Below are positions 33,494 to 48,034 of a stretch of 64,000 nt of DNA, in pieces (the first letter of the stretch is position 1; each line of letters starts with the position of its first letter). Source of the stretch: a virus (Duplodnaviria; Heunggongvirae; Uroviricota; Caudoviricetes); the IMG/VR virus record IMGVR_UViG_3300028914_000001, positions 29,489 through 93,488 of that record; one strand, given 5' to 3'. A program made the translations under genes and the position numbers. The notes beneath the pieces were generated by a model. That model was not told where the DNA came from, ran no database searches, and saw only the letters and a list, made by a program, of their open reading frames with translations.

Positions 33494-34687
33494 TTACTCC
33501 GATGCCTTGAAGTTATATACAGGCTTGATTGTTTCGACAATATCGCAACTGTCCTTGATGTTCTCGATGATTTCCTTTGCTGGCTTGTAAGCCATCGGGG
33601 ATTCATCCAAAGTGGATTTATTTACACATGTACTGTAAATGCCACGCATGGACTTCTGGTACGCTTCGAGCGAGATGCTTTCCTTCGCATGAGAGCGTGA
33701 CATCTTTCTTCCTGCTCCATGCGGTGCAGAGAAGTTCCAATCAGAGTTTCCCTTGCCCGTGCAAATAAGAGCCCCGTCCCTCATGTTCATAGGAATAATC
33801 AGGCGTTCGCCTTCCTGTGCGGATACAGCTCCCTTACGGAGAATCATGTGCTTCATGTCGATGTAATTATGCAAGGTGCAGAACTTGTCCACGACATGCA
33901 GACGGAGCGCCCTGACAATCTCTTCAAGCATCGCTTCACGGTTACGTGTTGCAAAGTCCTGTGCCAACGCCATGTCATGCAGATATCCGTCGAACGACTT
34001 GCCAGTGAGGTAAGACAGTTCCTTCGGGGGAGGGAAATGAGGGATGCTTGCCAACGCTGCGGGAAGCTCGTCTTCACGACCCTCACTCTTATACTTGGCT
34101 ATTATGGCACCACGCTGCTGAGTCAGGTCGTTGCATTCGTCGATTGCAACTCCCTGCCAGTAATCACAGGTTGCCAACCCAAGATGTCGGGAACCTGAGT
34201 GGATTACGATGTACAGGTTACCATGAGAATCCTTGTCGCATTCGCAGAAGTGATTGCCTCCGCCCAAACTTCCAAGCGACAACAACTCGGTATATTCCAT
34301 CTTCCCTTCCTTGTAGACAATCATATCCTCGATAGGAAAGTCCTTTGCCATCGAGTGCTTGCTTTCACGATGGGACTTCCCAGACGGAATCCTTTCACGG
34401 ATAACCTTGTCCAATTTATCAAAATCAACCGAACGGTCTTTCAACTTGGCAACAAGCATACCACACCCAATGTCCACCCCGACGAGATTAGGCACAATCT
34501 TGTCCTTAATCGTCATGGTAGTGCCAACGGTGCAGCCCTTCCCAGCATGCACATCGGGCATGATTCTAACCTGCATGTCCTTAGCCCAGCACTGACACAT
34601 CATGTTCAACAACTGTGTATATGCATCTGGGTCGATATTGTCGCTGAATACCTTGGCGGTATTAAACCTACCCTGTATATCAATCAT
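33494..34687 (-). CDS. rtcB: RtcB-family RNA 3'-phosphate/5'-OH ligase
   Basis: MPDVHAGKGCTVG, GGGNHFCE, HSGSRHLG and SAPHGAGR signature blocks; ATG at track residue 7. Confidence 0.9.
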   Translation of the reverse strand: MIDIQGRFNTAKVFSDNIDPDAYTQLLNMMCQCWAKDMQVRIMPDVHAGKGCTVGTTMTIKDKIVPNLVGVDIGCGMLVAKLKDRSVDFDKLDKVIRERIPSGKSHRESKHSMAKDFPIEDMIVYKEGKMEYTELLSLGSLGGGNHFCECDKDSHGNLYIVIHSGSRHLGLATCDYWQGVAIDECNDLTQQRGAIIAKYKSEGREDELPAALASIPHFPPPKELSYLTGKSFDGYLHDMALAQDFATRNREAMLEEIVRALRLHVVDKFCTLHNYIDMKHMILRKGAVSAQEGERLIIPMNMRDGALICTGKGNSDWNFSAPHGAGRKMSRSHAKESISLEAYQKSMRGIYSTCVNKSTLDESPMAYKPAKEIIENIKDSCDIVETIKPVYNFKASE

Positions 34688-35160: not shown

Positions 35161-36309
35161 TTAGTCAGAAAGCAGACGCTTGATTCTGTCACGAGCCCGC
35201 ATGAAGTTTTCATGGTAGGTTCCGTTCAGATAAACAACATCTTCTGTGCAGTAGTGCTTACCGAGAATGCTCATCAAGACCTGATACTGCTTCTTCCTAT
35301 CTTCGAAGCTGTTCGTGAGGCAATCCCTGCTTCCGTCCTGCACCCAGCTATCTTTTTTCGGAGGCATAACGAAGATGAGGTCGTATTTCAGGAACTTCGC
35401 ATTGGCTTCGATAAGCTTATAGTCGTCTTCGGTGATGGCATACCTGTCATCCATCGAGTAATACTTAGCGTACATGAGCGTTGTCATTGCGTCACTGTCA
35501 CAGATGTTGACCTTATGCCAACTTGCCGAGTTGACTCTGTACTGCTCGTTAAGAAAACGAAGGTAGTCATTAAAGGTCAGCTTGGTATCATCAGGCTGCG
35601 GTTCCTTTCCGTTTTGAGCGGCGATGTAAGTGTGACCGTATTCCTCGGTGTACCCAACATCGAAGTATCTGGCAAGGTCTTTCGTGAGCGTGGACTTGCC
35701 TTCCGATGCCGTACCGATAATCAGGACACGCTTGGCGAACTGAGCCTTGAACTCATGCCCAATGATTTCGTCCCAATACTTCATCGGTTCCTTGCGTATC
35801 TTTGTTGCAGAAATCTGATTGAGCTCTCTCGGCAACAGATACACATTGGGGCCTTTACTGACCAACGACATGATTGCCTGTCTGTACGACGGTTCGCCAG
35901 TAAAGACAGTCGTTTTCTGAAGCAATTTCGTACACTTTCGCTTGCTGACATCAGCATTGCCGTACACGATTTCAGCGAGCTTATCGCTGAGAGCTTCCAA
36001 CCATTCAGACCATTTGTCCATGTAACCTGCAATGCCGATATCGTTATCCTTCATCATGACGACGTGAACAAGCGGGTCGCCTTCAAACATCTTCTTGATG
36101 ATTTCATAGCGACGTTCAATCGGAAGACCGATTCTCGTACCACGGTCGCCATCAAGCCCGCAAACGGCAATGATTGCACCCTTAGAGCAGAGCTTCTTCG
36201 CTGCCATTACGAGGTCAAGATGACCTGTATGCATCGGGCTGAAAGACCCGAGGACAACCCCGTATTCACGAGGGCCACCGCTGATTTGGTTAATCACGTC
36301 GTCAAGCAT
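35161..36309 (-). CDS. nadR: NadR-like bifunctional NMN adenylyltransferase/ribosylnicotinamide kinase (no HTH)
   Basis: N-terminal GSFSPMHTGHLDLV (HxGH nucleotidyltransferase motif); C-terminal Walker A GTASEGKST; GGAGG RBS. Confidence 0.75.
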   Translation of the reverse strand: MLDDVINQISGGPREYGVVLGSFSPMHTGHLDLVMAAKKLCSKGAIIAVCGLDGDRGTRIGLPIERRYEIIKKMFEGDPLVHVVMMKDNDIGIAGYMDKWSEWLEALSDKLAEIVYGNADVSKRKCTKLLQKTTVFTGEPSYRQAIMSLVSKGPNVYLLPRELNQISATKIRKEPMKYWDEIIGHEFKAQFAKRVLIIGTASEGKSTLTKDLARYFDVGYTEEYGHTYIAAQNGKEPQPDDTKLTFNDYLRFLNEQYRVNSASWHKVNICDSDAMTTLMYAKYYSMDDRYAITEDDYKLIEANAKFLKYDLIFVMPPKKDSWVQDGSRDCLTNSFEDRKKQYQVLMSILGKHYCTEDVVYLNGTYHENFMRARDRIKRLLSD

Positions 36310-36990
36310 TTAAGCCTCCACAGTGTCTGTTTCAAGCTTCTTCTCGGTATGAGACCATTCGACCCAACCGTAGATGGTGTTGATAAACCAGCAAACATAC
36401 ATCGCCACCATTGCCCATTCGCCAATGAGTGCGAAAGTCACGATGGAAATGCCATCAAGCACAAACCAGAAGAACCACTGTTCACGGTAGCAAGTGATAA
36501 TGAGAATCTGAGCAATGACCGTGAAGCTTATGCTCAACGCATCCATGTACGGAACTGCACCGTCAAGAACAAACTTGTCGAACGTACCGAAGCCAACGGT
36601 AAGAACGATTGTCGCAATAATCGAAATAACCCATGCCTTAGGAGAGAGTCGCTTCGGAATAACGTGCGTTCTGTCCTTTTCGAGCTGCTTGTACCATGCG
36701 TACAAACCATACACCATCGTCACGTTGTAGAAGATATATTCGCCAAATTCAAGCCACAGGCGGCTTTCCCAACAGATGTACATATACATGAAGTTGAAAA
36801 CGAAACTCGGTGCGTAAGCCCAGATGTTCTTCTGTGCAAACATCACGGTTGAAATCGTTCCCAGGAGTGCCGTCAGCATGGCAAACCACATTGCGGTATG
36901 GCCATCAGGCATCATGATGGTGAAGATGATGGTGAAGATGATGAACGCTGTCATGTACAGCGCACGGAATTTATTTTTGATAAAAGACAT
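36310..36990 (-). CDS. pnuC: PnuC nicotinamide riboside transporter
   Basis: Seven predicted TM helices, aromatic-rich, PnuC-like size; abuts nadR; AAAGAAGGCAAT RBS. Confidence 0.7.
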   Translation of the reverse strand: MSFIKNKFRALYMTAFIIFTIIFTIMMPDGHTAMWFAMLTALLGTISTVMFAQKNIWAYAPSFVFNFMYMYICWESRLWLEFGEYIFYNVTMVYGLYAWYKQLEKDRTHVIPKRLSPKAWVISIIATIVLTVGFGTFDKFVLDGAVPYMDALSISFTVIAQILIITCYREQWFFWFVLDGISIVTFALIGEWAMVAMYVCWFINTIYGWVEWSHTEKKLETDTVEA

Positions 36991-37028
36991 ATTGCCTTCT
37001 TTGTTGATGGTTTTTGTTGTTTGTGAAA

Positions 37029-37057
37029 AATATACTAACTTCATTCCCCTCTGTCAA
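37029..37057 (-). promoter_or_regulatory. sigma70-type promoter with the -35 in a CCCC/GGGG hairpin
   Basis: TTGACA-N17-TATATT. Confidence 0.55.
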
Positions 37058-37073: not shown

Positions 37074-37802
37074 TTAACCACCTGCGGGCCAGTCAACGTA
37101 GCACTTACCCTTATTTTTCTTCACATAGGAAATAATCATGCGCTGCATCTGCTTGTACTCCTTGTCACTGCACTCGTCGGTGTTCTGAATAATGACAGCA
37201 TCATTGTCAAGGATAAAGGACGCAAGGTCGCAGAAGTCCAAGTAAGAATTGCAGCTGTCATCTACGCTCAGAATAGACAAGTCTGCATTGGGCTCGGTAA
37301 TCTTGTCAATCGTCCTGAGCATGTAGCTCATAATGATAGACTGGAAGGATTCATGCCCATAGCATCCGTTCGAAGCCCAATATTTCGGCCCAATGTATGC
37401 ACCGTTTTTCTTGGACTCTACTTTTGTATTCTTGATGGTAAGAGTGATATTCCAGTGCTTCTTGAAGCTCTTCTTCATGTAAGCAATGAACTTGCGATAT
37501 GCAGCAACAATTTCATCATTGCGCTTGATTTCCTTAGCGGTAATGTTCAGGTAGCCCTTCTTTTTCTCAGACCACTTGCCACAAGTCAACTTGTCGCACC
37601 AGTATTTCATGATGATTAGGAAGCAGTAGCTAGCCTTTTCTTCAGGCAGCTTCCTTTCGATAAGCGTTCTCTCGCTAAAATCCATCTCACCGTCAATACA
37701 GACCTTGACGGGTTCCTTGTTGAATACGCTACCCCTCGGGATGACGATTGCGTGCATCGAGGAAGAGTTCGTCTCGAATGTTGATTCTCGTATCGTTTTC
37801 AT
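37074..37802 (-). CDS. FETNSSS-motif family protein A (242 aa), unknown function
   Basis: N-terminus MKTIRESTFETNSSSMHA is shared with three paralogs; AGGAGAATGGAA RBS. Confidence 0.6.
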   Translation of the reverse strand: MKTIRESTFETNSSSMHAIVIPRGSVFNKEPVKVCIDGEMDFSERTLIERKLPEEKASYCFLIIMKYWCDKLTCGKWSEKKKGYLNITAKEIKRNDEIVAAYRKFIAYMKKSFKKHWNITLTIKNTKVESKKNGAYIGPKYWASNGCYGHESFQSIIMSYMLRTIDKITEPNADLSILSVDDSCNSYLDFCDLASFILDNDAVIIQNTDECSDKEYKQMQRMIISYVKKNKGKCYVDWPAGG

Positions 37803-37811
37803 TCCATTCTC

Positions 37812-38321
37812 CTATCTGATAATCGTGATATTACCGAAATCCTTAGCGGGATTGAGTAAAAGTATGTTGTGGTGAGGACGGGTATTGTGTTCCTCGTCCT
37901 TGACAAGGTCGTCTATGATGACATAGTCGTAACCGTCGTACCTGCTCAGGTCGTTGTTGGCAAGCTGTTCCGCCACCAGATGAATCTTACCGAGTCCGTA
38001 TGCGGCCATCATGCCTGGGTGGAGGACTTCCTCCCTGTCGGATTCCTTCAACCATTCCCGGCTGATTGCGTAATCAACCGAGTCATTCTTAGTAAAGACA
38101 CAGCCACGGGGGAACCCGTACAATCCAAACCTGTCGAAGATGCTATCGACGACATCATCACGGATATCATCCTTGGTCTTCCATCCCCATGTGAACAAAT
38201 GCACGAACAGGGGTTTGTAACGGTCGATGAACCCCTTAATCTTCTCGCAGTTTTCCTGCATGAAGTTGAGCGATGTCAGGTCATCTACGACTGTATTTTC
38301 AATATCTAATACCAGCTGCAT
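37812..38321 (-). CDS. hypothetical protein, possibly HAD-like (169 aa)
   Basis: N-terminal LVLDIENTVVDD resembles a DxDxT motif; ACAAGGAATAAAG RBS. Confidence 0.45.
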   Translation of the reverse strand: MQLVLDIENTVVDDLTSLNFMQENCEKIKGFIDRYKPLFVHLFTWGWKTKDDIRDDVVDSIFDRFGLYGFPRGCVFTKNDSVDYAISREWLKESDREEVLHPGMMAAYGLGKIHLVAEQLANNDLSRYDGYDYVIIDDLVKDEEHNTRPHHNILLLNPAKDFGNITIIR

Positions 38322-38323
38322 CT

Positions 38324-38896
38324 TTATTCCTTGTTGTAATCTCTAACTTTCTTTACATAACTGGAAATGTCGAGTTCCTCGGGGTGGAGCTTGCCTTGAC
38401 TGAAATACTCGAACTTCAGTAGCGTGGCGATTTCCCTTGGTGCGTCCTTAACGACCTCGTCGTACGCTTCGGCACTATCAATCAATTTATTCATGGCACA
38501 CTCACGGCAGTACGGGCTAACCCATCCAGTCCTCACCATGGGCACATCAAGCTTTCCACAGACGATGCAGACATTCCGTGATATCGCACAGTAGGCTTCG
38601 AGGATTTCGAAGAGTTTGTCGCTCATGGCTGACGGGTAGATACGGAGTTCGCCGAACTTCTCCTTGATGTCGCAGAAGTAGAACTCATCTCTGGCTTCCT
38701 TCTTCCAGGTGTTTACCTCGTTCTGGATATCCTCGAACATCAGGATGCCAAACGCCTTCGCCCATCCTTCAGGTAGATGGTCCATACAGGTATAGCTGTA
38801 ATCGTATCCGTCAATTACCTTTCCCGTGAACGCATTCTTCGGGAGAAGTATCGGGTACTTCTCGATGAGAGCCTTATTTTCTTCCACCGTTCGCAT
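38324..38896 (-). CDS. hypothetical protein (190 aa)
   Basis: AAAGGGAAAGAAAG RBS. Confidence 0.55.
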   Translation of the reverse strand: MRTVEENKALIEKYPILLPKNAFTGKVIDGYDYSYTCMDHLPEGWAKAFGILMFEDIQNEVNTWKKEARDEFYFCDIKEKFGELRIYPSAMSDKLFEILEAYCAISRNVCIVCGKLDVPMVRTGWVSPYCRECAMNKLIDSAEAYDEVVKDAPREIATLLKFEYFSQGKLHPEELDISSYVKKVRDYNKE

Positions 38897-39251
38897 CTTT
38901 CTTTCCCTTTATGTTGACTTCGATACACATCTTCACATAGTCCTCAATAGAACGTATCTCGTACTTCTTGCCGTTGGTTTCAACGAGGGTGGAACCACCG
39001 TGGGAAATAGTGTCCAGAGCCTCGTACATGAACCATTCGGCGCCTTCCTTGCTTTCGTAGAGGAATGCCATTAGCCAGTCGATAATGCGGTTATCAACAA
39101 GTTGAACCGGGCCAAGATACATCGAGCGGGAATCCCCTCCAAGAGCCTTGTCCATATTCGAGTTAAACTGTTCAAGTTCCTTTTCCATGCTGTCACGGAG
39201 TTCTACCAGCCGTTTAAGCAAGTCAATGAGCAATTCTTCTGTGTTTGCCAT
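38874..39251 (-). CDS. hypothetical protein (125 aa)
   Basis: AAAGAGGTTTAT RBS followed by ATG (MANTEELL...). Confidence 0.5.
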   Translation of the reverse strand: MANTEELLIDLLKRLVELRDSMEKELEQFNSNMDKALGGDSRSMYLGPVQLVDNRIIDWLMAFLYESKEGAEWFMYEALDTISHGGSTLVETNGKKYEIRSIEDYVKMCIEVNIKGKKDANGGRK

Positions 39252-39270
39252 ATAAACCTCTTTTTTCCAA

Positions 39271-39299
39271 AATATACATACTTCTTTTGAGATTGTCAA
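39271..39299 (-). promoter_or_regulatory. sigma70-type promoter (divergent from the clpX promoter)
   Basis: TTGACA-N17-TATATT. Confidence 0.55.
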
Positions 39300-39332
39300 G
39301 GGAAATACCTAATTATTTTTTCCACCAACCCC

Positions 39333-39361
39333 TTGCCACCCTATAAAAAATATACTATATT
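39333..39361 (+). promoter_or_regulatory. sigma70-type promoter for clpX
   Basis: TTGCCA-N17-TATATT, then TAATTCAAAGC and an AAAGGAA RBS. Confidence 0.55.
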
Positions 39362-39384
39362 AATTCAAAGCAAAAGGAATTACC

Positions 39385-40644
39385 ATGCCAAGCAACAAAA
39401 GACCTACACAAAACGACACCCCGGTCTGCAGCTTCTGCGGACGCCCGATTGAAGAAAACACCCTTGCCGTACGTGGCATGTCCCCGATAGGAGCATTCAT
39501 CTGCTCTGATTGCGCCAAGCTCGCCAGCAACATTATGGATGCAAGAGCAGCACAGCAACAGCAGAATGGTCGCAAGAAAGAGATGCACCTCCCGTCTCCT
39601 CATAAAATTAAAGAACACCTTGACACGTTCGTCATCGGACAGGACAAGGCCAAGGAAGCCCTTTCCATTGCGGTGTACAACCATTACAAGAGACTGGAAT
39701 ACAACGAAATCCGCTCCGACGATGATGTGGAAATCGAGAAGTCCAATGTCCTCCTCGTAGGCCCGACGGGCTGTGGAAAGACGATGCTTGCAAGGGCTAT
39801 CGCAAAGATGCTCAATGTCCCGTTCGCAATCGCCGATGCGACCGTCCTGACCGAAGCTGGCTATGTGGGCGAAGATGTGGACAGCATCATTTCCCGCCTC
39901 CTCCAAGCGGCAAACATGGACGAGAAGGAAGCCGAGCACGGCATCATCTTCCTCGACGAAATCGACAAGATTGCAAGGAAGAGTGCCAACCCGTCCATTA
40001 CCAGGGACGTATCGGGCGAAGGAGTACAGCAGGGCCTGTTGAAGCTCCTCGAAGGAACTGAGGCCAAAATCAATCCGCAGGGTGGCAGAAAGCATCCCGA
40101 ACAGAAACTGATTACCATTGACACCAGGAACATCCTCTTCATCTGCGGGGGAGCTTTCGAGGGCCTTGACGAAATCATCTCCGAACGTACTGAAAAAGGC
40201 GGCATGGGATTCGGTGCAGCCATCCACACGAGGGAAAAGAAAAGCCTCAGCGAACTGTTCGATAAGTGCGAACCTGATGACCTCGTGAGGTTCGGACTCA
40301 TGCCGGAACTCGTCGGCAGACTTCCCGTCACCGTCGCTCTTGACGAACTCGACGAGGACGCCCTCCGCAGAATCCTGACCGAACCGAAGAATGCCATCAT
40401 CAAGCAGTACACCAAGCTGCTCGAACTCGACGGAATCAAACTTTCGTTCGACGAGGAAGCGCTCGGGGAAATCGCCCGCCTGACCATCGAACGCCATACT
40501 GGTGCCCGTGGTCTCCGTTCCATCGTCGAAGAGTTGCTCCACGACGCAATGTTCATGGGTCCCGACAGCAAGGACAAGGAACTCCGCATCACGCAGGATA
40601 TGGTCATGGAACACTTCCATATTCAGGAAAGAAAGGCTTCCTAG
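39385..40644 (+). CDS. clpX: ClpX ATP-dependent Clp protease ATP-binding subunit
   Basis: N-terminal C4 zinc finger (CSFCGR...CSDCAK), Walker A GPTGCGKT, Walker [10 protein letters not shown], full-length ClpX homology. Confidence 0.95.
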
Positions 40645-40668
40645 CCATCTTTCCAACTGAATTGAAAT

Positions 40669-40700
40669 AGCCAGCGAGAACATCGCTGGCTTTCTTGTTA
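40669..40700. terminator. bidirectional rho-independent terminator
   Basis: AGCCAGCGA-gaaca-TCGCTGGCT hairpin followed by TTCTTGTTATTTCTT. Confidence 0.7.
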
Positions 40701-41135
40701 TTTCTTGTCCTTCTTATCTTCGATAATCCGAAGTACATTCCGTACCGACCGTATGACGGTATCGTCATTAACCATCTTCCTGATTATCTTCCGCAAGTCT
40801 TTCTCGTTATTGCACTTTACCACGTCGCAGTTTTCCAGTTTGAGCGGCTTGACATACGCTGGATAAAATTCGGTGTAGCTTATTGCGGCAAATTTATTAC
40901 GAACCGTAGAATTGGTCTTCGGGTTCTGATATTTGAGCAAGATATAATAGGATTCATCCTGCTCATCGCCATCAAAGAATAGTCTGGCCTCGTCCTCCGA
41001 AATAGGTTGAAGCATGACCGATGCAGTCCCTTCGGTAATACGGCAAACCTCGTTATTGAGACGGTCCAGTTCATCGTCCACCTTTTGGCTCGTCGGGGAC
41101 ATAATTTTTTCTAGGTCGAAATAATCGTTAGACAT
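40698..41135 (-). CDS. hypothetical protein (145 aa)
   Basis: GGGAGGGATAG RBS. Confidence 0.55.
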   Translation of the reverse strand: MSNDYFDLEKIMSPTSQKVDDELDRLNNEVCRITEGTASVMLQPISEDEARLFFDGDEQDESYYILLKYQNPKTNSTVRNKFAAISYTEFYPAYVKPLKLENCDVVKCNNEKDLRKIIRKMVNDDTVIRSVRNVLRIIEDKKDKK

Positions 41136-41504
41136 CTATCCCTCCCTGCGTATCACATCCTCGTAAGTCAAACATGGCTTGACCTTAGGGAGTAACGCCT
41201 TTTCCTTCATGCGGATAGTTTCCGACTTGTTCAGCTTGTTACGGAGGCGAACACACGACTGTCTCAGAGTCTTTATAGTCTTAGCATCCTTTTTTGCCTG
41301 GGCTTTGTTTCCTTTGGCCTCGTTCTGCAGCTTCGCAAGAGCAGCGGCATACTCCTCGTTCGTCATAGGACGGGCGTTCTGCTTCGTAAGCTGTTTGAGA
41401 ACCTTCTTGACATCGTCGTAACGGCACCAACGGCCATCGGAGTCATCTACGGCACGGATACCCATGTCGGTAATCTTCATCGAAAATCGTCTCAATTCAT
41501 TCAT
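41136..41504 (-). CDS. hypothetical basic protein (122 aa)
   Basis: TTGAGGTGCAAG RBS followed by ATG. Confidence 0.5.
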   Translation of the reverse strand: MNELRRFSMKITDMGIRAVDDSDGRWCRYDDVKKVLKQLTKQNARPMTNEEYAAALAKLQNEAKGNKAQAKKDAKTIKTLRQSCVRLRNKLNKSETIRMKEKALLPKVKPCLTYEDVIRREG

Positions 41505-41715
41505 CTTGCACCTCAATTTTATGGAGTTCGGCGTCGTATTCGTCCACGGTCAACTCTTTTGGTTTCAAGTGTTTAGCCTTCGCCAGCAAGGAAACGTGTA
41601 CCAGCATATTTCCATCTTTACACAGTACATAAGCCCAACTCGATTTCACTTTTCGAGTTTTCGCAACCGCCTGTCGTGCAAGCAATTTACCCAGTTCTGG
41701 AATGGAAGTCTTCAT
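41497..41715 (-). CDS. small hypothetical protein (72 aa)
   Basis: AGGAGGGAGT RBS. Confidence 0.5.
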   Translation of the reverse strand: MKTSIPELGKLLARQAVAKTRKVKSSWAYVLCKDGNMLVHVSLLAKAKHLKPKELTVDEYDAELHKIEVQDE

Positions 41716-41728
41716 ACTCCCTCCTAAG

Positions 41729-42139
41729 TTAATCCAAGTTAATTAAGTTAATGCAATCCACGATGAACTGACCGAAGTCGTCCTGAATCGCAGCAGCAAT
41801 GTTAGAGTCTAACCTTTTGGTTCCTGTGAGATATCCCCATCCACGCACGTCGAGGTCAATCTCGTCGCCGTCAGCCTTGAACCTAACCACGGCGGCACTC
41901 TGGGAGCCCAAGTACTCGGGATGCCCGAAAGACTTCTTCATAGGGGGTTCCTTACCCTCTAGGACTGCATTCATGGCATCTACAATAGCCTTGAAATGCT
42001 CATCGGCAGTACCCGTGAAGGCAGCGTCAGACATTGAACTGGTTGTACGGTTTCCGGCAGAATCCCAGATAGTATCTAGGCAAATCTGGTCGTTTTTAAA
42101 CGGGGATATAAAGTATTTTTTCCATTTGTATTCGTTCAT
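41729..42139 (-). CDS. hypothetical protein (136 aa), possibly translated from a leaderless mRNA
   Basis: The ATG lies about 7 nt after the -10 of promoter 42146-42174, with no SD. Confidence 0.5.
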   Translation of the reverse strand: MNEYKWKKYFISPFKNDQICLDTIWDSAGNRTTSSMSDAAFTGTADEHFKAIVDAMNAVLEGKEPPMKKSFGHPEYLGSQSAAVVRFKADGDEIDLDVRGWGYLTGTKRLDSNIAAAIQDDFGQFIVDCINLINLD

Positions 42140-42145
42140 AGTTAA

Positions 42146-42174
42146 AATATAGTTAAATTGTCCTGATTTGTCAA
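42146..42174 (-). promoter_or_regulatory. sigma70-type promoter
   Basis: TTGACA-N17-TATATT. Confidence 0.55.
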
Positions 42175-42175
42175 T

Positions 42176-42209
42176 TAAATAAAAGAATCGGGACTAAAAT
42201 GTCCCGATT
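42176..42209 (-). terminator. rho-independent terminator
   Basis: AATCGGGAC-taaaat-GTCCCGATT hairpin followed by TTTTATTTAA on the minus strand. Confidence 0.55.
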
Positions 42210-42229
42210 GTGTCCCGATTGTGTCCCGC
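42200..42229. repeat. tandem direct repeats TGTCCCGATTG x2 plus a partial third copy
   Basis: Overlaps the 3' arm of the terminator hairpin. Confidence 0.7.
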
Positions 42230-42365
42230 ATCACGGCGTCGGTGCGTACGTCACCGCCTTTGTTTTCAGCTTGTCCATAGGGTTTCAAGGCTTTGGGCCG
42301 CCACCTGCCGTTACGCATCCGTTCATTTAACTCCGCAAGTCCATCGTGCGGAGACGAGACAATCG

Positions 42366-42890
42366 TTATGGCTTCTCCTTGGAAGGAGGAGCGAAGATTT
42401 CATCTGATTTCTTCTCAAATTCACGAATCATGTAAGCAACGATGTTCCAGTCAGGTTCCAACAGGGATGATTCCAGTTCCTTAAACTTCGTTTTAATCCA
42501 CAGTCGCCAAGTAGCCAGTCGGCCATAGCCTTTAAACATATCATCAATCCACTTGTCGATATAAGCATCGTCCCATTCCTTGTAGTCACCAAGCAAGGAC
42601 GTACCCATCATTCCAACCGCAGACTGGGTATGGATGAACTCATACTTGTCCTTCGGAGGATACTTCTGGGTCACACAAGGAGAGTGTTCCGGGTCGTTAA
42701 CAACGCTTCTGAAAACGACGCCGAAAGCTTCCTTGTCATTTCCAGAGTAGATTTTCAATGCAATATCGGTTGGCGACGTACGTTTAAGTACGTAGCTCAA
42801 ATTACCAATAACGCATTCCTTGTAATCGCCAGCATGAGAAATTTCATCCTTGCTAGTAATTCGTTCCCACAATCTATCAATAAGGCTCAT
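42366..42890 (-). CDS. hypothetical protein (174 aa)
   Basis: ACGGAGATTGAAA RBS followed by ATG (MSLIDRL...). Confidence 0.55.
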   Translation of the reverse strand: MSLIDRLWERITSKDEISHAGDYKECVIGNLSYVLKRTSPTDIALKIYSGNDKEAFGVVFRSVVNDPEHSPCVTQKYPPKDKYEFIHTQSAVGMMGTSLLGDYKEWDDAYIDKWIDDMFKGYGRLATWRLWIKTKFKELESSLLEPDWNIVAYMIREFEKKSDEIFAPPSKEKP

Positions 42891-42908
42891 TTTCAATCTC
42901 CGTTGATT

Positions 42909-43388
42909 TTAACCATCGAACCACACAGCGTTTGCCTTCACATATATCTGACCATTCTCTTCAACCTCAGTAATGCCCGATTTATCGTAATCATAATCAC
43001 CTTCAGAGGTGAAATTGTCGGAAAGCTCCTTCATTTTAAGGTAACTGCAAGCAACATGTGATGTATTCAGATGATACATAAGAGATTCGAGCGGACCGTA
43101 ACCCTCTCCATACTTCACAGAAAGCTTGATAAATTCCACGACAAAGTCCTTAGGCAACTTGCCAATGCTTTCCGGCTCGTTCTTCATGAGGTAATCAGCA
43201 TAGTCATGTACGTCGACTATGTCATCCCTCTTATCCCACGGTCCGCTGCCACCCATCGGGTTACACAGAAGCCAAACCAAGTTCGGGTCACCTGCGACAA
43301 ACCTGTCCCATTTTTCCTTCGGCGTATACGTCAAGGCGTGTGCCGAAGACGAATTAGTTTCAAATACTGAATATCGTACTGTTTTCAT
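42909..43388 (-). CDS. FETNSSS-motif family protein B (159 aa)
   Basis: MKTVRYSVFETNSSSAHAL; TAGAGGAACTT RBS. Confidence 0.6.
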   Translation of the reverse strand: MKTVRYSVFETNSSSAHALTYTPKEKWDRFVAGDPNLVWLLCNPMGGSGPWDKRDDIVDVHDYADYLMKNEPESIGKLPKDFVVEFIKLSVKYGEGYGPLESLMYHLNTSHVACSYLKMKELSDNFTSEGDYDYDKSGITEVEENGQIYVKANAVWFDG

Positions 43389-43407
43389 AAGTTCCTCTAA
43401 TATACCA

Positions 43408-43445
43408 CAATATAACAAAAAAGCGGATGGCTGTCAACCATCCGC
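43408..43445 (-). terminator. terminator hairpin GCGGATGG-TTGACAG-CCATCCGC plus U-tract, with the -35 of the next promoter in its loop
   Basis: 8-bp stem followed by TTTTTTGTTATATT on the minus strand. Confidence 0.55.
43409..43437 (-). promoter_or_regulatory. sigma70-type promoter overlapping the terminator hairpin
   Basis: TTGACA-N17-TATATT. Confidence 0.5.
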
Positions 43446-43466
43446 AAGGCACGTAAAGAAAATTTA

Positions 43467-44063
43467 TTAGAACTTTACCGTCGGGGCCACATCAGCGCCA
43501 GTAACAGCGGAGAACGGCACCTTCGGGGTCACTCCGGCGAATCCCGCCACGAAGACACCGGGGAATGTTCTGACCTTGTTGTTAAGGTTGTTGACTGCCA
43601 CATTGAACTGGCGTCTGGACTCGGCGATACGGTTTTCGCATCCTTCAAGCTGAACACGCAGGTCACGGAAAGCGGCGTTAGCCTTCAAGTTCGGATAGTT
43701 TTCTGTAACCATCATGAGACGCTGCAATGCTCCACCGAGGCTGTTCTGTGCTTCCTGGAACTTCTTCATTGCACGTTCGTCACTGAGCATGCTTTCATCC
43801 ATCTTAATCACGCCACCCATACGGCTACGAGCCTCGATGACTTCGGTGAGCGTACTCTTCTCGAAGTTGGCTTCGCCCTTCACCGTTTCGACGATGTTCG
43901 GAATAAGGTCGTAACGACGCTGGTACTGGTTTTCGACGTTAGCCCAGCTCATCTGCACACCGTTTTCAAGAGTGCGAAGGGAGTTGAACTGGCCGATGAA
44001 AGCGCATCCGCTGATAAAGGCGAGCACGACAATGACGATAAGTACGAGTTTACCCGTAGACAT
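43467..44063 (-). CDS. lemA: LemA-family membrane protein
   Basis: N-terminal TM, then NSLRTLENGVQMSWANVENQYQRRYDLIPN, YPNLKAN and LEGCENRIAESRR blocks typical of LemA. Confidence 0.8.
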   Translation of the reverse strand: MSTGKLVLIVIVVLAFISGCAFIGQFNSLRTLENGVQMSWANVENQYQRRYDLIPNIVETVKGEANFEKSTLTEVIEARSRMGGVIKMDESMLSDERAMKKFQEAQNSLGGALQRLMMVTENYPNLKANAAFRDLRVQLEGCENRIAESRRQFNVAVNNLNNKVRTFPGVFVAGFAGVTPKVPFSAVTGADVAPTVKF

Positions 44064-44101
44064 TTTATACCTCTTTGGTTTAGATTGTTGGTTTTGTTGA
44101 A

Positions 44102-44130
44102 AATATAGCATTTAACTTGGTGCTTGTCAA
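44102..44130 (-). promoter_or_regulatory. sigma70-type promoter
   Basis: TTGACA-N17-TATATT. Confidence 0.55.
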
Positions 44131-44133
44131 GGG

Positions 44134-44874
44134 CTACCATCCGCCATGACTTCCGCCACCGCCGAAACTGCCTCCGCCGAATCCGCTGCTGCCTCCGCCA
44201 CCCTTGCCTCCGCCAAGACATGACAGTATAACGAGAACGGTACTCAACACGGGAATATCAGTGAGCGCCTCGATGATACCAAGTAGGATTAGGACGACGA
44301 TTACTATGGCTACCACGATGGCTACCGTGGTTCCGCTCACCTTCTTTTCATCGGCAGGGGCGAGCTGAGCCGTATCAAGGGTTGCCGTGAGCGTAATCTT
44401 CTTCTCTTCTTGGACCTTCGTGGCAATCATGCTTGCAAGCTTGATGATGCCCTGACCACCCTCTCCACTCTGCAATGCGGGGATAAGGGAGGTCTGCTGC
44501 ATATGTTCCACGAGGACATCAGGCAAATACCCCTCGGAACCGTAACCCACATGTACGCCTCGGTAGTGCGGGTCCATCACGACATAGATGAATACACCCT
44601 CGTTCGAATCCTTGCTGCAGATTGCCCACTTCTGGGCTACACGCAAACTGAATTGAACCGGGTCTTCACCGTCAATCGTCTTGAATGTCGCCACGGCAAG
44701 GCCGAAACGAGCGTTCTTGGCAAGGTCGGACGCAATCGAATTTAATTGGTAGACCTGGTTTGCCGACATGATTCCCGCCCCGTCGTAAACGAACGAGTTG
44801 GTTGGAATCGGTGGGACCTCGATGGCCGAAACCAACGAGACAAGTAGCACTAATATGGCTAGGATTTTCTTCAT
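44134..44874 (-). CDS. TPM-domain (YgcG-like) protein with signal peptide, TM segment and Gly-rich tail
   Basis: Signal peptide, TPM-like core, TM helix, C-terminal GGGSFGGGGSHGGW; canonical LemA partner. Confidence 0.7.
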   Translation of the reverse strand: MKKILAILVLLVSLVSAIEVPPIPTNSFVYDGAGIMSANQVYQLNSIASDLAKNARFGLAVATFKTIDGEDPVQFSLRVAQKWAICSKDSNEGVFIYVVMDPHYRGVHVGYGSEGYLPDVLVEHMQQTSLIPALQSGEGGQGIIKLASMIATKVQEEKKITLTATLDTAQLAPADEKKVSGTTVAIVVAIVIVVLILLGIIEALTDIPVLSTVLVILSCLGGGKGGGGSSGFGGGSFGGGGSHGGW

Positions 44875-44883
44875 GTTTCCCTC

Positions 44884-45597
44884 TTAGCTGTGATAGAATG
44901 TTAGGCTGATGCGTTTTCTGAGAAGGTCTCTCGGCATGTCATGCTTCTTCTCGTACAGGTCTTCTCGCCAATCCTCGGGACCGAAGAAAGTCATAGCACC
45001 TCTAAAGGAGTCACTTGTCAGACAATTACCTGTAATGCCGACGTAATGAGCAAGCTTCGGACAGTTCGGATAATCGCTGTTCTCGTTGAACCGTTTTAGC
45101 ATGTCATCGTATTCATCACGGGGCATGTCAGCAGGGTCATACTCGCAGTTCCGATAATCCTGTGGCTCATTGCCGTCGATGACAACCTTGTCGCCATCCA
45201 CGGTCAGTGCATAGCAACGATAGTCCTTGACCTCGGGAAGACCGAACTCTTTATACACATCATTGATGATGTCAAGGAAATCCTTTCGGTTCCTTTCCAT
45301 GATATCCTGACGCACGACATAGCTAACCTTCCCGTCCTTATCGACCTTTCTATCGATAAGGCAGGAGAATACAGACTGGGCGGCGAGATACTGGATAATC
45401 CTCTTGACATCGTCAGTGTCGCACTTGGAGTTGCTGGACTGCCAGAACGTATCCAGCTCGATTTCAAGCAATCCGTTCTCGTCGGGCAGCGGGAACTCCG
45501 ACTTGTCTCGAAGGGCAGGTTCAGTACCCTGTGGATAAGTGAAGGCGTGTTCAGACGAGGAGTTCGTCTCGAAAACATTCATTCTGATGGTTCTCAT
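44884..45597 (-). CDS. FETNSSS-motif family protein C (237 aa)
   Basis: MRTIRMNVFETNSSSEHAF. Confidence 0.6.
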   Translation of the reverse strand: MRTIRMNVFETNSSSEHAFTYPQGTEPALRDKSEFPLPDENGLLEIELDTFWQSSNSKCDTDDVKRIIQYLAAQSVFSCLIDRKVDKDGKVSYVVRQDIMERNRKDFLDIINDVYKEFGLPEVKDYRCYALTVDGDKVVIDGNEPQDYRNCEYDPADMPRDEYDDMLKRFNENSDYPNCPKLAHYVGITGNCLTSDSFRGAMTFFGPEDWREDLYEKKHDMPRDLLRKRISLTFYHS

Positions 45598-45606
45598 AGA
45601 GTTACC

Positions 45607-46041
45607 CTAATCGTTGTCGTTTCCCATGGAGATTACAGAGCCGCTGAACACAAAGGTGAACAGTTCCTCTGGGTCATCAAGCATGTTGCCAATGCGACGG
45701 CTATCTTCGTCTTGGGCAGGTGCGCTCTGGTGGTCGATGTAACCAGACGGTTCATCATTGAAGTCGAAATCGACGATAACGCCACGCTCTTCGAAGTATT
45801 CCTGGATTGCAGGGAGCTTTTCACGGAGGCCTTCGTGGAAGATATACTTGCCAGCCACGAGAGCATAGTCGAGGTGGTCATCAGGTGTTTCCACATCTGG
45901 GCCATACCAACCATACTCACCGCTGCCAAATACCCTGATGCGGGGATAACGCTTCGGGTCGAACTTTTGTTCAGTGACTATGCAGAACGTATGGGCACTC
46001 GAACTGTTTGTTTCAAAAACAGAATCTCTAATTGTCTTCAT
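45607..46041 (-). CDS. FETNSSS-motif family protein D (144 aa)
   Basis: MKTIRDSVFETNSSSAHTF; AAGGATGGTAAA RBS; ATG at track residue 13. Confidence 0.6.
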   Translation of the reverse strand: MKTIRDSVFETNSSSAHTFCIVTEQKFDPKRYPRIRVFGSGEYGWYGPDVETPDDHLDYALVAGKYIFHEGLREKLPAIQEYFEERGVIVDFDFNDEPSGYIDHQSAPAQDEDSRRIGNMLDDPEELFTFVFSGSVISMGNDND

Positions 46042-46042
46042 T

Positions 46043-46993
46043 TTACCATCCTTGGGTTGTAACCTGAAGCAGGTCATGAATGTTTTCCTTACCCGTGAAC
46101 GAGTAACGCTTGTCCAGAGCTGCGGTGCTCATGCGGGCTACCTGCATGTTCGGAACGTCGATGTACATCGTGGCACAGGTGATGTTCCCGTCAGCATCCT
46201 TCACATCCGTGTCGGAACCCTGGAACAGCGTATTGAAATCCTTGTCAGAGATATTGAGAGCCGTCTTCGGGTCCAACTGTTCTATGCCGAGGCAGTCGAA
46301 CGACATCACCTTAAAGGGAAGAATCGAGCGCATCATCATGAATTTCAGCCAGTTGATATTAGCCTTGATTTCATCACTGTGCTTTTCAAGCATGGCATGA
46401 CCACGACGCAAATCCTTGTAACCAAGGATAAGCACCTTCCTGTCGCTCAATGCAGGGAGGTCCTTCGCAGTCAAGATGCCCGCAATGGTATGGATTACAA
46501 CATTGTCGCCGAGCGTGTCGATGAAGTCGAAGTCTTCCTTGTTGCTGGAATCCGTAAGCGAGATGCCGATACCGTGAACGAGACCGTCGCCCACAATCTT
46601 GCAGATGATGTCCTTGTACGGTTTCAGGTGACGCTGGTTGATTGTGATGTTTGCGATTACACCCTGTTCCTTCAAGCGTTCGAGGAACCAGACGAGGTCA
46701 GGATGGGCCAAGGCGTTGCCACCACCGATAGCGCACTCGGTTCCTGAATGAAGGGTAGCAATCATCGGTTCCAATGCCCTGAGGTCGCCATGCTTGCCAT
46801 TTACCGTAGAGTTTTCATGGCAGTAAACGCATCCACCGTCGCACTGGTCGGTAATCTTGATGTCAAAGTTCTCGGGAAAATCATATGTGAAATGGTCGGC
46901 CATCGGGTCGAGCGTTTCCTTGATTTTGGTGCCATCCGAGTAGATGGTCACCATATGGTTGCCGTTTGTATATGTGTTAAGTATCGTTCGCAT
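46043..46993 (-). CDS. radical SAM enzyme (QueE-like?)
   Basis: CDGGCVYC (CxxxCxxC) cluster at residues 50-57 and GGGNALAHPDL glycine motif. Confidence 0.65.
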   Translation of the reverse strand: MRTILNTYTNGNHMVTIYSDGTKIKETLDPMADHFTYDFPENFDIKITDQCDGGCVYCHENSTVNGKHGDLRALEPMIATLHSGTECAIGGGNALAHPDLVWFLERLKEQGVIANITINQRHLKPYKDIICKIVGDGLVHGIGISLTDSSNKEDFDFIDTLGDNVVIHTIAGILTAKDLPALSDRKVLILGYKDLRRGHAMLEKHSDEIKANINWLKFMMMRSILPFKVMSFDCLGIEQLDPKTALNISDKDFNTLFQGSDTDVKDADGNITCATMYIDVPNMQVARMSTAALDKRYSFTGKENIHDLLQVTTQGW

Positions 46994-46994: not shown

Positions 46995-47972
46995 TTAGTC
47001 TCGCCAACGGTTTCTCTTCATTTCTTCAATGAATCCTTCGGGGTAGTACAATTCGTTAGACATTCCATTGTACGTTCCCGACATGTGAATGATTTCCGAC
47101 GTAGCCTTGTCGTAAGTCTGGCATGCAACGCAATGTCCGCAACGACCCTTGTATGTCGGGCTATAACAGAAGCTGCACAGTTCGATAGGGAAATGACGGT
47201 AGTTCAAGTTACGGATAATATCCGCCTTTGTCAGGAACTGAAGGGGATAGCTGAACATGATATTCTTCTGCCCAACCACCGTCAACAGATGCTCCTGTGC
47301 GGCAAGGATATTGTGCGACCAGTTCCAGAAGTCGTCACCCTTGTGATATCCGAAGTGGTAGCAGGTCTTATTCCTGCCACACAGAGATACCATCGAGGCC
47401 ATAAAGGGTTGTTGGAAAAGAGACGGTTCCGAACCGTTCCAGTTATCCATATTCCCTTCAAGCTTAATGAAATCTCGTTTAGGTTCATAGTCGTACTTCT
47501 TAGCGAGATATTCGAGAATCTTTTCCTGAGAAGCAACTTCAGACAAATAGTGATGGGATGTGCCAAACTGTTCACACCGGAAGCTGAGCAAGCGTGGCTT
47601 GATACCCTTTTCGAGCAAATCAACGAGAATAAGCGTACTGTCAAGACCACCACTGAATACTACCGCATTGTTGATAATATCTTCAAACTTCTTTGTAATA
47701 GGCTTTACTTCATGGAGCCTATCGAAGACCTTCTCTGCGGCAGATTTGAATTGGTGGGTTTCCTCAGGCGATTCGACATCGCACAAAACTTCTTCGGGAG
47801 CGGCGTCGCACAATTCCGCTTCATCTTTCTTTTCATCCTCAGCGTCCACCTTCAATTCAGCCTTATACGGCTTCTTTTTGGCCACGAGAGCTCGCTTCAA
47901 CAGGGTGCCGTATTTCGGTTTAGACTTTGTTTCTGGACGAATCTTTTCGTTTGATTGTTTCTTTTTAGTCAT
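46995..47972 (-). CDS. queC: QueC-like PP-loop ATPase (7-cyano-7-deazaguanine synthase family) with a Lys-rich N-terminal extension of about 100 aa
   Basis: VVFSGGLDST PP-loop; C-terminal C-x8-C-x2-C-x2-C zinc motif (CYSPTYKGRCGHCVAC) as in QueC. Confidence 0.65.
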   Translation of the reverse strand: MTKKKQSNEKIRPETKSKPKYGTLLKRALVAKKKPYKAELKVDAEDEKKDEAELCDAAPEEVLCDVESPEETHQFKSAAEKVFDRLHEVKPITKKFEDIINNAVVFSGGLDSTLILVDLLEKGIKPRLLSFRCEQFGTSHHYLSEVASQEKILEYLAKKYDYEPKRDFIKLEGNMDNWNGSEPSLFQQPFMASMVSLCGRNKTCYHFGYHKGDDFWNWSHNILAAQEHLLTVVGQKNIMFSYPLQFLTKADIIRNLNYRHFPIELCSFCYSPTYKGRCGHCVACQTYDKATSEIIHMSGTYNGMSNELYYPEGFIEEMKRNRWRD

Positions 47973-48005: not shown

Positions 48006-48034
48006 AATATAGTCTTTTAAATCCTTTTTGTCAA
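48006..48034 (-). promoter_or_regulatory. sigma70-type promoter of the QueC/radical-SAM/FETNSSS operon
   Basis: TTGACA-N17-TATATT. Confidence 0.55.

Follow-up and report, generated by a model that had tools for sequence, protein, structure and literature searches.

What joins four phage proteins that begin with nearly the same residues, continue in different ways, and are encoded close to a single radical SAM gene? The genes lie on the minus strand of the stretch of DNA analysed here (the window, 64,000 nucleotides), which belongs to a phage of ~420 kb. The first-pass annotation had described them as paralogues with a possible functional tie to the neighbouring radical SAM gene. All four open reading frames were confirmed, and the features of the locus are as follows.

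37074..37802, minus strand: copy A, 242 aa, A-type subfamily
42909..43388, minus strand: copy B, 159 aa, short subfamily
43437-43409, minus strand: promoter-like site of copy B, TTGACA-N17-TATATT
43445-43423, minus strand: terminator-like hairpin after LemA, overlapping the copy B promoter-like site
43467-44111, minus strand: LemA (Pfam LemA, E 2.5e-52)
44134-44874, minus strand: TPM-domain protein (Pfam TPM, E 2.3e-22)
44884..45597, minus strand: copy C, 237 aa, C-type subfamily
45607..46041, minus strand: copy D, 144 aa, canonical family member
46043..46993, minus strand: radical SAM enzyme, 316 aa, with C51-x3-C55-x2-C58 and a GGGN SAM-binding motif, no SPASM region
46995..47972, minus strand: QueC-like PP-loop ATPase, 325 aa, with SGGLDS and a C-terminal Cys cluster; first gene of the probable operon
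48006..48034, minus strand: promoter-like site upstream of the QueC-like gene, TTGACA-N17-TATATT, 11 of 12 positions

Four genes with a common N-terminal tag

The phage proteins of this family have a 17-residue start sequence in common, here called the tag. Its consensus, x-I-R-x-x-[VT]-F-E-T-N-S-S-S-x-H, begins within one or two residues of Met1 in all four copies, and the tags are encoded as follows.

45988-46041, minus strand: tag of copy D, codons 1-18, MKTIRDSVFETNSSSAHT
37749-37802, minus strand: equivalent tag of copy A
43335-43388, minus strand: equivalent tag of copy B
45544-45597, minus strand: equivalent tag of copy C

The near-identity of the four N-termini holds good, with eleven positions identical in all copies (M1, T3, R5, F9, E10, T11, N12, S13, S14, S15, and H17). 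In a six-frame scan, FETNSSS, ETNSS, and TNSSS were found at these four N-termini only, save for a single TNSSS that lies in a non-coding frame and is unrelated. For each pair of copies, 7-12 of the 13-15 shared tag residues are encoded differently, and the tag serines are specified by TCN as well as AGY codons; since the shared residues use such divergent codons, the identity of the tag is selected at the protein level. The start codons assigned in the first pass also stand. Each ATG follows a Shine-Dalgarno-like purine run, orthologues begin at the same Met, and the shared motif survives these start-codon checks. The longest open reading frames of copies B and D reach upstream to 43418 and 46077, and the extension of copy D overlaps the radical SAM gene.

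The bodies of the proteins define the subfamilies. Copy D has all five canonical motifs (FETNSSSxH, GEYGW, a DDHLDYA helix, GYIDHQS, and GNDND), so that the canonical body motifs GE[FY]GW, (E/D)KAxY, GY[IV]DH, and (T/D)GNDN are complete in it. Copy B lacks the canonical body motifs and is classed as B-type (short); even with deep profiles, only residues 1-28 of B-type proteins can be aligned with the canonical profile. In an alignment, its tag is followed by an E-K-W-D-R-F..G helix, an acidic middle, and the C-terminal NGQIYVKANAVWFDG, for which the consensus of the short subfamily is T.PSG..VVAFGYYG. Copies A and C have 50-70 N-terminal residues in common with the canonical type, that is, more than the tag. 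Residues 1-56 of copy C align with the canonical profile (E 2.5e-13), and of the canonical body motifs it retains the W and the helix only; an orthologue alignment gives the order tag, β-hairpin, and W, with the C-terminal end ...LTFYHS. In copy A, an N-terminal subdomain of the canonical type is followed by a large insertion, and the canonical motifs are found in a diverged version (DFS, EKASY, GCYGH, and TDE), its own motifs being GCYGH, IIQxTDE, and WPxGG. A loose W...DYA element, previously ascribed to all four proteins, is present in B, C, and D, where it represents W45 and the invariant Y59 of the wider family, but not in A, which has DFS...EKASY instead.

The QueC-like gene, the radical SAM gene, D, C, TPM, and LemA, in that order, are probably an operon that starts at the 48006..48034 site, with intergenic gaps of 1, 1, 9, and 9 nt. 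Copies D and C share a transcription unit with the radical SAM gene, which precedes them, as the earlier reading had it: only 1 nt separates the stop of the radical SAM gene from the start of copy D, C follows after 9 nt, and no promoter-like or terminator-like site lies between. The accompanying claim that each of the four genes has its own consensus promoter was not borne out, as only copy B has one and no promoter-like site was found directly upstream of A, C, or D.

Pairing with a radical SAM enzyme across phages

The tagged family is very large, unnamed, and phage-borne. Among 80 viral loci from IMG/VR seeded with the family, a radical SAM gene of the phrog_16999 type was present in 72, always on the same strand, with a median gap of 16 bp. 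When the loci were seeded with the radical SAM gene, the tagged family was found in 78 of 80, the two exceptions being truncated contigs. In an independent genome collection, both genes are present in 41 of the 47 loci that reach 10 kb, and in GenBank both occur in Microcystis phages, Lak megaphages, and Arash. The Thermus phages phiYS40 and TMA were matched by the radical SAM search only; in phiYS40, a divergent tagged gene lies directly upstream of the radical SAM gene. Over hundreds of phages, each of the two is almost always accompanied by the other. In Microcystis phage Ma-LMM01, gp130 (phrog_28997) and gp128 (phrog_16999), which belong to the same two families as the tagged proteins and radical SAM enzyme of the window, are one gene apart. 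In Salmonella phage Arash, gp146c joins the family domain and the radical SAM enzyme in a single polypeptide, and a second candidate fusion, a weak one, was found in BFVD. With the pairing and the fusions, the functional tie suspected in the first pass becomes both stronger and more general.

The composition of the module is also regular. Tagged genes lie upstream of the radical SAM gene in 65 of the 72 loci, and each single enzyme gene is accompanied by 1-10 of them, ten in the locus L016; C-type proteins are present in L016 and in other large-phage loci. Of 171 unique loci, 133 have both tagged types, canonical and short, beside the enzyme, and 85 have the order canonical, short, radical SAM. 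The usual module, in our reading also the ancestral one, consists of a canonical gene (copy D type), a short gene (copy B type), and the radical SAM gene. No third gene family recurs in over 32 of the 155 loci compared; a LemA-like cluster is present in 23 of these, and direct searches placed TPM in the window's clade only and LemA in that clade plus five other loci; both are co-transcribed with D and C but lie outside the conserved module.

The same applies to the QueC-like gene, a clade-specific addition whose occurrence beside the module is confined to 10 loci of close relatives, counting the window. A general link of the family with a PP-loop or QueC protein is not supported; of the two genes named in the first-pass reading, only the radical SAM gene is a regular companion. 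The gene is called QueC-like rather than QueC because its NCBIfam QueC equivalog score is 39 bits against a cut-off of 150 and its Pfam QueC match (E 1.6e-12, 47.8 bits against a cut-off of 22) covers the C-terminal third only. It matches phrog_1550 (E 7e-24) and, weakly, QatC and QueC.

In an alignment of 277 unique phage ORFs, N12, S13, S14, and H17 of the tag are each 100% conserved, next to R5 (99%), F9 (94%), E10 (99%), T11 (96%), and S15 (99%). The invariance of the polar loop extends from Thermus and cyanobacterial phages through gut phages. Met and the tag F are separated by 8 or 9 residues in 273 of the 277, so the distance of the tag from Met1 is fixed while the subfamilies carry differing bodies. 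Judged by sequence, the tag is the sole universal element of the family. Canonical members have other invariant polar residues, namely W45, Y59, D103-H104, and N141-D142-N143.

The radical SAM partner and the predicted fold

The enzyme at 46043-46993 scores 33.8 bits with Pfam PF04055 (cut-off 29.5) and belongs to phrog_16999 (E 3.6e-39). It is 40% identical to Ma-LMM01 gp128 (E 3e-58) and 31% identical to the C-terminal domain of Arash gp146 (E 2e-17). Across 27 homologues, C51, C55, and C58 are invariant and GGGN is conserved; because of these features, the enzyme looks catalytically competent. No other conserved Cys was found in this alignment, nor was a SPASM/twitch region or a recognisable RRE/PqqD-like domain found in the enzyme. 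NCBIfam maturase models matched the core region only, far under their cut-offs, and a PDB profile search gave generic core matches; the weak best matches include MoaA and viperin, which act on nucleotides. In one homologue, an intein-like element lies inside the cluster motif.

As for the tagged proteins, phrog_28997 was matched by 69 of 123 diverse family members (best E 3.7e-39), while copies A, B, and C, too divergent, gave E values of about 0.05 or no match. Neither this cluster nor phrog_16999, which is labelled "Fe-S oxidoreductase", has an assigned function, and a literature search found no paper that connects the two. The earlier view that the motif fits no characterised domain is sustained, in that no known domain and no characterised family matched. 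Structural searches with copies D and A yielded nothing significant among proteins of known function, and no structural similarity of the predicted fold to metallophosphoesterase, SGNH, Ntn, pyruvoyl enzymes, flavodoxin, or Toprim was found. The fold, as predicted, is without a solved relative in the PDB. In the models, pLDDT stays < 50 over the first 11 residues of copy A and averages 69 over the first 10 of copy D, and the first strand begins at S15 in both; the tag is thus predicted to lie outside the confident folded core.

A proposed maturation module and its alternatives

We propose, with a probability of roughly 0.45, that the radical SAM enzyme recognises its partners by the tag and modifies them there. 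The tagged proteins would be dedicated partners of one enzyme, here that at 46043-46993. The flexible N-terminus would enter the active site, where one residue of the T-N-S-S-S-x-H loop would lose a hydrogen to the 5′-deoxyadenosyl radical. The post-translational modification that follows, possibly oxidation of a Ser to an aldehyde, a cross-link, or epimerisation, would mature the proteins, whose different bodies presumably have different jobs. The phage of the window would have added two tagged paralogues (A and C) and the QueC-like ATPase to the module. This reading is favoured because the tag is invariant, its distance from Met1 is fixed, the bodies differ, and 1-10 tagged genes share one enzyme, a pattern that fits a site recognised by the radical SAM enzyme better than an independent hydrolase active site. 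Conservation of this kind, with 100% positions and divergent codons, resembles that of protein modification sites, and the predicted position of the tag outside the folded core points the same way. Several tagged genes, mostly upstream of a single enzyme gene, resemble precursor-maturase operons by analogy.

The analogy extends to PflA/NrdG activases, sulfatase-maturating enzymes, and RiPP maturases, in which one radical SAM gene likewise stands beside clients that share a short conserved sequence, the client genes usually being upstream and on the same strand; the activases PflA and NrdG are also similar to the window's enzyme in size and in having a single cluster. In contrast to these systems, the tag is at the extreme N-terminus of folded proteins of 120-250 residues with a fold absent from the PDB, the system is viral, and two client types are normally together. 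Membership in known classes was rejected. No RVxG[FWY] C-terminal glycine loop was found in the tagged-family alignments and the tag has no invariant Gly, which excludes a glycyl-radical enzyme with its activase; the (C/S)-x-(P/A)-x-R motif, alkaline-phosphatase fold, and SPASM region of the sulfatase system are lacking; and the enzyme is not a SPASM/twitch peptide maturase, auxiliary-cluster Cys and an RRE/PqqD-like domain not being found.

The near-obligate pairing itself suggests that large phages have a protein-maturation module not described before. More tentatively, and with the odds somewhat against it, this may be an unrecognised system, widespread in large phages that infect bacteria and probably archaea, in which a dedicated single-cluster radical SAM enzyme modifies, or builds a cofactor on, the T-N-S-S-S-x-H loop of clients of unsolved fold; jumbo phages would have diversified these clients into up to ten different effectors. 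If true, the post-translational modification or protein-derived cofactor would be of a new kind.

Several observations go against a modification site. A SPASM/twitch region and an RRE domain are usual in peptide-modifying radical SAM members, and the enzyme has neither; the additional invariant polar residues of canonical members resemble an active site to which the tag could belong; and copies A and C share 50-70 residues, rather than the tag alone, with the canonical type. The first two of these observations lend some weight to a rather unlikely alternative, in which the radical SAM enzyme is a multi-protein assembly that has the tagged proteins as subunits and acts on something else, such as a nucleotide or nucleic acid, a lipid, or a host protein. 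The identical N-terminal strands and loops would be the contacts by which the canonical and short proteins attach to the enzyme or pair with one another, and E10, N12, S13-15, and H17 would serve substrate, metal, or cofactor binding. The fixed gene architecture and the natural fusion to the enzyme agree with such a complex, and the co-occurrence of two subfamilies in 133 of 171 loci, with the fusions, fits it as well as it fits modification. Docking interfaces, however, normally co-vary between lineages, whereas the polar loop is invariant from Thermus to gut phages; up to ten differently built paralogues for one enzyme, as in L016, and a tag predicted to be less ordered than the remaining protein also speak against it. 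It is improbable that the tagged proteins are, as the first-pass annotation had it, stand-alone metal-dependent enzymes (e.g., hydrolases) with a catalytic Glu/Asn/Ser/His loop, processing the small-molecule or nucleic-acid product of the radical SAM enzyme and, here, of the QueC-like protein, even though canonical members have conserved acidic and His residues where strands typically end, neighbouring genes would suit consecutive steps of a pathway, and the weak radical SAM matches include the nucleotide-acting MoaA and viperin.

Two further proposals can be given little credence. T4 internal proteins are phage paralogues with a near-identical short N-terminus (MKTYQEFIAE|) and divergent bodies, and the first ten residues of the tag, MKTIRxSVFE, match that sequence in length and in the hydrophobic-x-Glu ending. 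A capsid-targeting propeptide cut after V-F-E by a prohead protease is nevertheless hardly credible, as it leaves unexplained both the radical SAM partner and the 100% invariance past the supposed cleavage site; moreover, the tagged family is without a prohead-protease link, and, as an indirect pointer on presence in virions, the Arash paper reports a virion proteome of 116 proteins without "Gp146" occurring anywhere in its text. It is also very improbable that, in the window's clade, the QueC-like ATPase acts on the tagged proteins by protein-nucleobase or other ATP-dependent conjugation, as Cap9 and QatC do on their partners. The QueC-like gene heads the operon, with translational coupling to the radical SAM gene across a 1-nt gap, and QueC-family enzymes modify unstructured N-termini of their partners (PMC13279940). 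In those bacterial defence systems, Cap9-CD-NTase (type IV CBASS) and QatC-QatB, a QueC-like PP-loop enzyme likewise stands beside proteins with a conserved, poorly ordered N-terminus, and QatB, like copies D and A, has no significant structural match of known function (PMC13279940). Their substrates, however, start MG[GT]S and are modified at the exposed Gly2 (PMC13279940), whereas the phage tag, MKxIR...FETNSSSxH, begins MK(T/R), so that Met is retained and no Gly is exposed. Membership among the QueC-family N-terminal deazaguanylation substrates (CD-NTase, QatB) was rejected for the MK/MR start and for the restriction of the QueC-like gene to the window's clade; being absent from all loci outside that clade, the gene is an add-on at most.

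The four genes and their common N-terminus

Four minus-strand open reading frames with almost the same N-terminal residues had been described in the first-pass annotation, and all four are present exactly where it placed them, as follows.

Copy A: 37074-37802, minus strand, 242 aa
Copy B: 42909-43388, minus strand, 159 aa
Copy C: 44884-45597, minus strand, 237 aa
Copy D: 45607-46041, minus strand, 144 aa

A six-frame scan of the window finds the FETNSSS core at these four N-termini only. Eleven of residues 1–17 are identical across the four copies, a Shine-Dalgarno-like run precedes every start codon, and the orthologues share the same first Met. In pairwise comparisons, 7–12 of the 13–15 common tag residues are encoded by different codons; therefore, the tag reflects selection on the peptide rather than a recent DNA duplication or gene conversion. 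The N-terminal peptide expected from tryptic digestion of copy D is DSVFETNSSSAHTFCIVTEQK.

The tag, x-I-R-x-x-[VT]-F-E-T-N-S-S-S-x-H, shows extreme invariance and a fixed N-terminal placement. In 273 of 277 unique phage ORFs, the nearest Met precedes F9 by 8 or 9 residues. Conservation among these ORFs is as follows.

Tag residue conservation in 277 unique phage ORFs
R5: 99%
F9: 94% (Y in 5%)
E10: 99%
T11: 96%
N12, S13, and S14: 100% each
S15: 99%
H17: 100%

Two database proteins, P0153 (288 aa) and P0214 (395 aa), each carry two tandem tagged units, with a Met directly before the second tag. These are probably neighboring genes joined by the gene caller, possibly owing to a reassigned stop codon, and not true internal tags.

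Canonical members of the family are 140–190 aa long and have five motifs, all present in copy D: the N-terminal tag, GE[FY]GW, an (E/D)KAxY helix, GY[IV]DH, and (T/D)GNDN. Shallow profile comparisons between the paralogue groups aligned just 22–29 residues. A deep canonical profile extends the alignment to residues 1–72 of the A family (E 4e-26) and to residues 1–56 of the C family (E 2.5e-13). It follows that these groups have a common N-terminal subdomain consisting of the tag, a hairpin, a Trp, and a Tyr-bearing helix. Copy B aligns to the same profile over 28 residues only and belongs to a distinct short subfamily with the tag, an E-x-[YFW]-[DE]-x-[WF] helix, an acidic middle, and the C-terminal sequence T.PSG..VVAFGYYG.

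The values given for the predicted structures are 87.9, 0.87, and 5.3 (helical fragments) for copy A and 91.8, 0.86, and 2.7 for copy D. In both models the first strand starts at S15, and the tag residues before it are the least confident part: confidence is below 50 for residues 1–11 of A and averages 69 for residues 1–10 of D. Foldseek against BFVD returned two matches, another family member and, weakly, a 461-aa "Radical_SAM domain containing protein". The predicted fold is one without solved relatives.

A word-indexed database search with copies A to D returned close orthologues only, none with a name or Pfam domain. HMMER, run exhaustively against 1.84 billion representatives, yielded 2,895 proteins at E ≤ 1e-3, nearly all matching from residue 1. 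A canonical-member profile reached at least 6,598 clusters (90% identity), and these too had no Pfam domain or informative name. The four copies had no significant match when compared directly with Pfam and PHROGs, and none in PADLOC. With 123 diverse members, Pfam and NCBIfam gave sporadic chance matches only, none meaningful, and 69 of the 123 matched phrog_28997 ("unknown function"). Neither a PDB sequence search with the A-family profile nor a near-identity DNA search of the region against GenBank phages found a match. In the literature on the motif string, phage radical SAM enzymes, Ma-LMM01, phiYS40, and jumbo phages, we found neither the motif nor the family nor its pairing with a radical SAM enzyme described; the Arash paper does not discuss gp146.

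A phage module of tagged proteins and a dedicated radical SAM enzyme

The genes upstream of copy D are as follows.

46043-46993, minus strand: radical SAM enzyme, phrog_16999
46995-47972, minus strand: QueC-like PP-loop ATPase

In the radical SAM enzyme, C51, C55, and C58 are invariant, and a GGGN motif and an N-terminal hairpin (Y.NGN..V.I..DGTKIRE) are conserved. The alignment contains no further conserved cysteines, so the enzyme lacks a SPASM or twitch region. NCBIfam comparisons gave sub-threshold, core-only matches to MoaA, peptide maturases, NrdG, and viperin, and a PDB profile search found nothing specific. In one homologue (L050:10850-12950), an intein-like element lies exactly inside CxxxCxx|C. 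Its N-terminus reads CFHPDSEV... and its C-terminus ...NCLVHN|CHEKST, an HNH endonuclease ORF is in another frame, and the radical SAM and intein-like pieces are spread over three frames. Intein-like elements usually mark functionally critical sites.

The first-pass annotation had tied the tagged genes to both upstream genes. The tie to the radical SAM gene is borne out across IMG/VR, and the QueC-like gene was found beside the family in the window's own clade only. Among loci collected with the family as seed, the radical SAM subfamily (counted at ≥100 bits) is present in 72 of 80; the pairs are always on the same strand, with a median gap of 16 bp, and the family gene is upstream in 65. Conversely, 78 of 80 loci seeded with the radical SAM contain at least one tagged ORF, both exceptions being truncated contigs. 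In 185,579 species genomes the family occurs at only 76 loci, nearly all on MAG contigs, some binned with methanogens, and the enzyme is present in 41 of the 47 loci that are ≥10 kb. No third gene family is shared by more than 32 of 155 loci. These results show a self-contained phage module made up of tagged proteins and a dedicated radical SAM enzyme.

Among GenBank phages, tblastn finds the family in the Microcystis phages Ma-LMM01 and MaMV, the Prevotella Lak megaphages, and Salmonella phage Arash. In Ma-LMM01, the member gp130 is one gene away from gp128, which is annotated "Fe-S oxidoreductase" and is 40% identical to the window enzyme (E 3e-58). Arash gp146c is a natural fusion of the two: its N-terminal ~150 residues match the family, with FATNSSSSHS, GYGW, GYIDHES, and GGNDN, and the remainder is a radical SAM domain 31% identical to the window enzyme (E 2e-17). 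A radical SAM query recovers the Microcystis, Lak, and Arash phages again, together with the Thermus phages phiYS40 and TMA. The 355-aa radical SAM of phiYS40, gp161, has its start overlapped by a divergent tagged gene, gp162 (L249:2518-4535). In the gp162 tag, …LTSMTNSSSASM…, both Glu and His are replaced, and its distance from Met1 is greater by 5 residues. Comparison with this very divergent pair suggests that T-N-S-S-S is the irreducible core of the tag.

The commonest architecture, found in 85 of 171 unique loci, is a canonical gene, a short gene, and the radical SAM; both canonical and short types are present in 133 of the 171. Large phages have expanded the tagged set, to a maximum of 10 paralogues (locus L016). 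The window has one canonical gene, D, one short gene, B, and in addition C and A.

Possible role of the tag

How the parts of the module work together we infer as follows. The favored reading, to which we give a probability of roughly 0.45, is that the tag is the site that the radical SAM enzyme recognizes and modifies. The tag is the sole element common to proteins that are otherwise differently built, it lies at a free N-terminus outside the confidently modeled core, several client genes, usually upstream, accompany each enzyme gene, and its small polar residues are 100% invariant, which is typical of modification sites and not of docking surfaces. The general architecture is similar to that of radical SAM maturase-client systems. 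More speculatively, an aldehyde or a cross-link would arise if the enzyme abstracted a hydrogen from a loop Ser or Thr, and this product might then be used by the D-H and N-D-N residues that canonical members conserve.

The main rival, which we consider somewhat less likely, is a multi-subunit enzyme to which the tags make structural or catalytic contributions. The fixed combination of canonical, short, and enzyme genes, the fusions, and an enzyme without the accessory domains of peptide maturases all favor such an assembly. The first-pass annotation had read the N-terminus as catalytic or metal-binding, with the proteins possibly acting, as stand-alone enzymes, on the product of the QueC-like/radical SAM pair. 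This is improbable, since the other motifs are missing from short and C-type proteins, which retain the tag, and QueC lies outside the module. Two further candidates were rejected. QueC-type N-terminal conjugation as a general mechanism failed on Gly2 and on the restricted occurrence of the QueC-like gene, and a T4-like capsid-targeting sequence would leave the pairing with the radical SAM unexplained.

Should the radical SAM enzyme indeed modify the tag, the module would represent a new, virus-carried protein-maturation chemistry. There is a substantial chance that both chemistry and fold are new. The clusters, at least 6,598 of them, are nameless; we found no structural relative for them and no model in Pfam or NCBIfam, and their link to a radical SAM subfamily, itself just as unstudied, is nearly one-to-one. 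The module is carried by cyanophages (Ma-LMM01), Lak megaphages, a Thermus phage, Salmonella phage Arash, which is culturable, and hundreds of phages from gut and rumen; it also occurs on contigs from methanogen bins. The residues worth examining are already defined, and Arash gp146 and Ma-LMM01 gp128 with gp130 are genetically tractable systems. For annotation, the tag with a phrog_16999 gene next to it places thousands of proteins now called 'hypothetical' in a single functional module.

Promoters, operon, and neighboring genes

Each copy had been thought to have its own promoter. This holds for copy B; A, C, and D have none directly upstream. The signals are as follows.

48034-48006, minus strand: promoter-like site at the operon head
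43437-43409, minus strand: strong sigma-70-like site of copy B, TTGACA-N17-TATATT
43445-43423, minus strand: terminator-like hairpin of the operon

The operon order is QueC-like, radical SAM, D, C, TPM, and LemA, with gaps of 1, 1, 9, and 9 nt. For copy A, the nearest promoter-like site (39299-39271) is four genes upstream. On the minus strand between 37029 and 48034, six near-identical TTGACA-N17-TATATT sites (11/12) occur at 48034, 44130, 43437, 42174, 39299, and 37057, and they look like a repeated phage promoter class; promoter-like sites number 26, against 12.9 expected. Sigma-70-type hexamers would be unusual in a Bacteroidota host, although the bins that contain close relatives are Bacteroidaceae and Prevotella MAGs.

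The window belongs to a metagenomic phage contig of ~422 kb (JGI 3300037453 Ga0394155_0000002), and the gene order is kept in related ~418-kb contigs. Neighboring genes are as follows.

20782-21879: M29 aminopeptidase
31512-32459: SPFH/Band-7 protein
33494-34687, minus strand: RtcB RNA ligase, after the NadR-like/PnuC pair
35161-36309, minus strand: NadR-like bifunctional NMN adenylyltransferase/ribosylnicotinamide kinase, downstream of copy A
36310-37044, minus strand: PnuC nicotinamide riboside transporter, directly downstream of copy A
39385-40644, plus strand: full-length ClpX homologue with N-terminal zinc finger
48886-50142: UDP-galactopyranose mutase
59959-61104: family-2 glycosyltransferase

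The NadR-like and PnuC genes make up a set for NAD+ salvage, of a kind reported in gut jumbo phages. The ClpX homologue, located between copies A and B, is on the opposite strand in a block whose other genes are all on the minus strand. A LemA-like cluster is found in 23 of 155 loci, as well as in the window operon; the association with the module is weak and may be a lineage effect. In a second, unrelated lineage (L030, L031, L035, L085, and L092), a LemA homologue lies ~2-4 kb downstream of the module (E about 1e-12). In a related 418-kb phage (L005:8065-9013), the QueC-like gene appears as two called ORFs, of 115 and 181 aa, compared with one of 325 aa, and in another relative (L008:3983-4387) an IS200-like Y1 transposase lies just downstream of the module.
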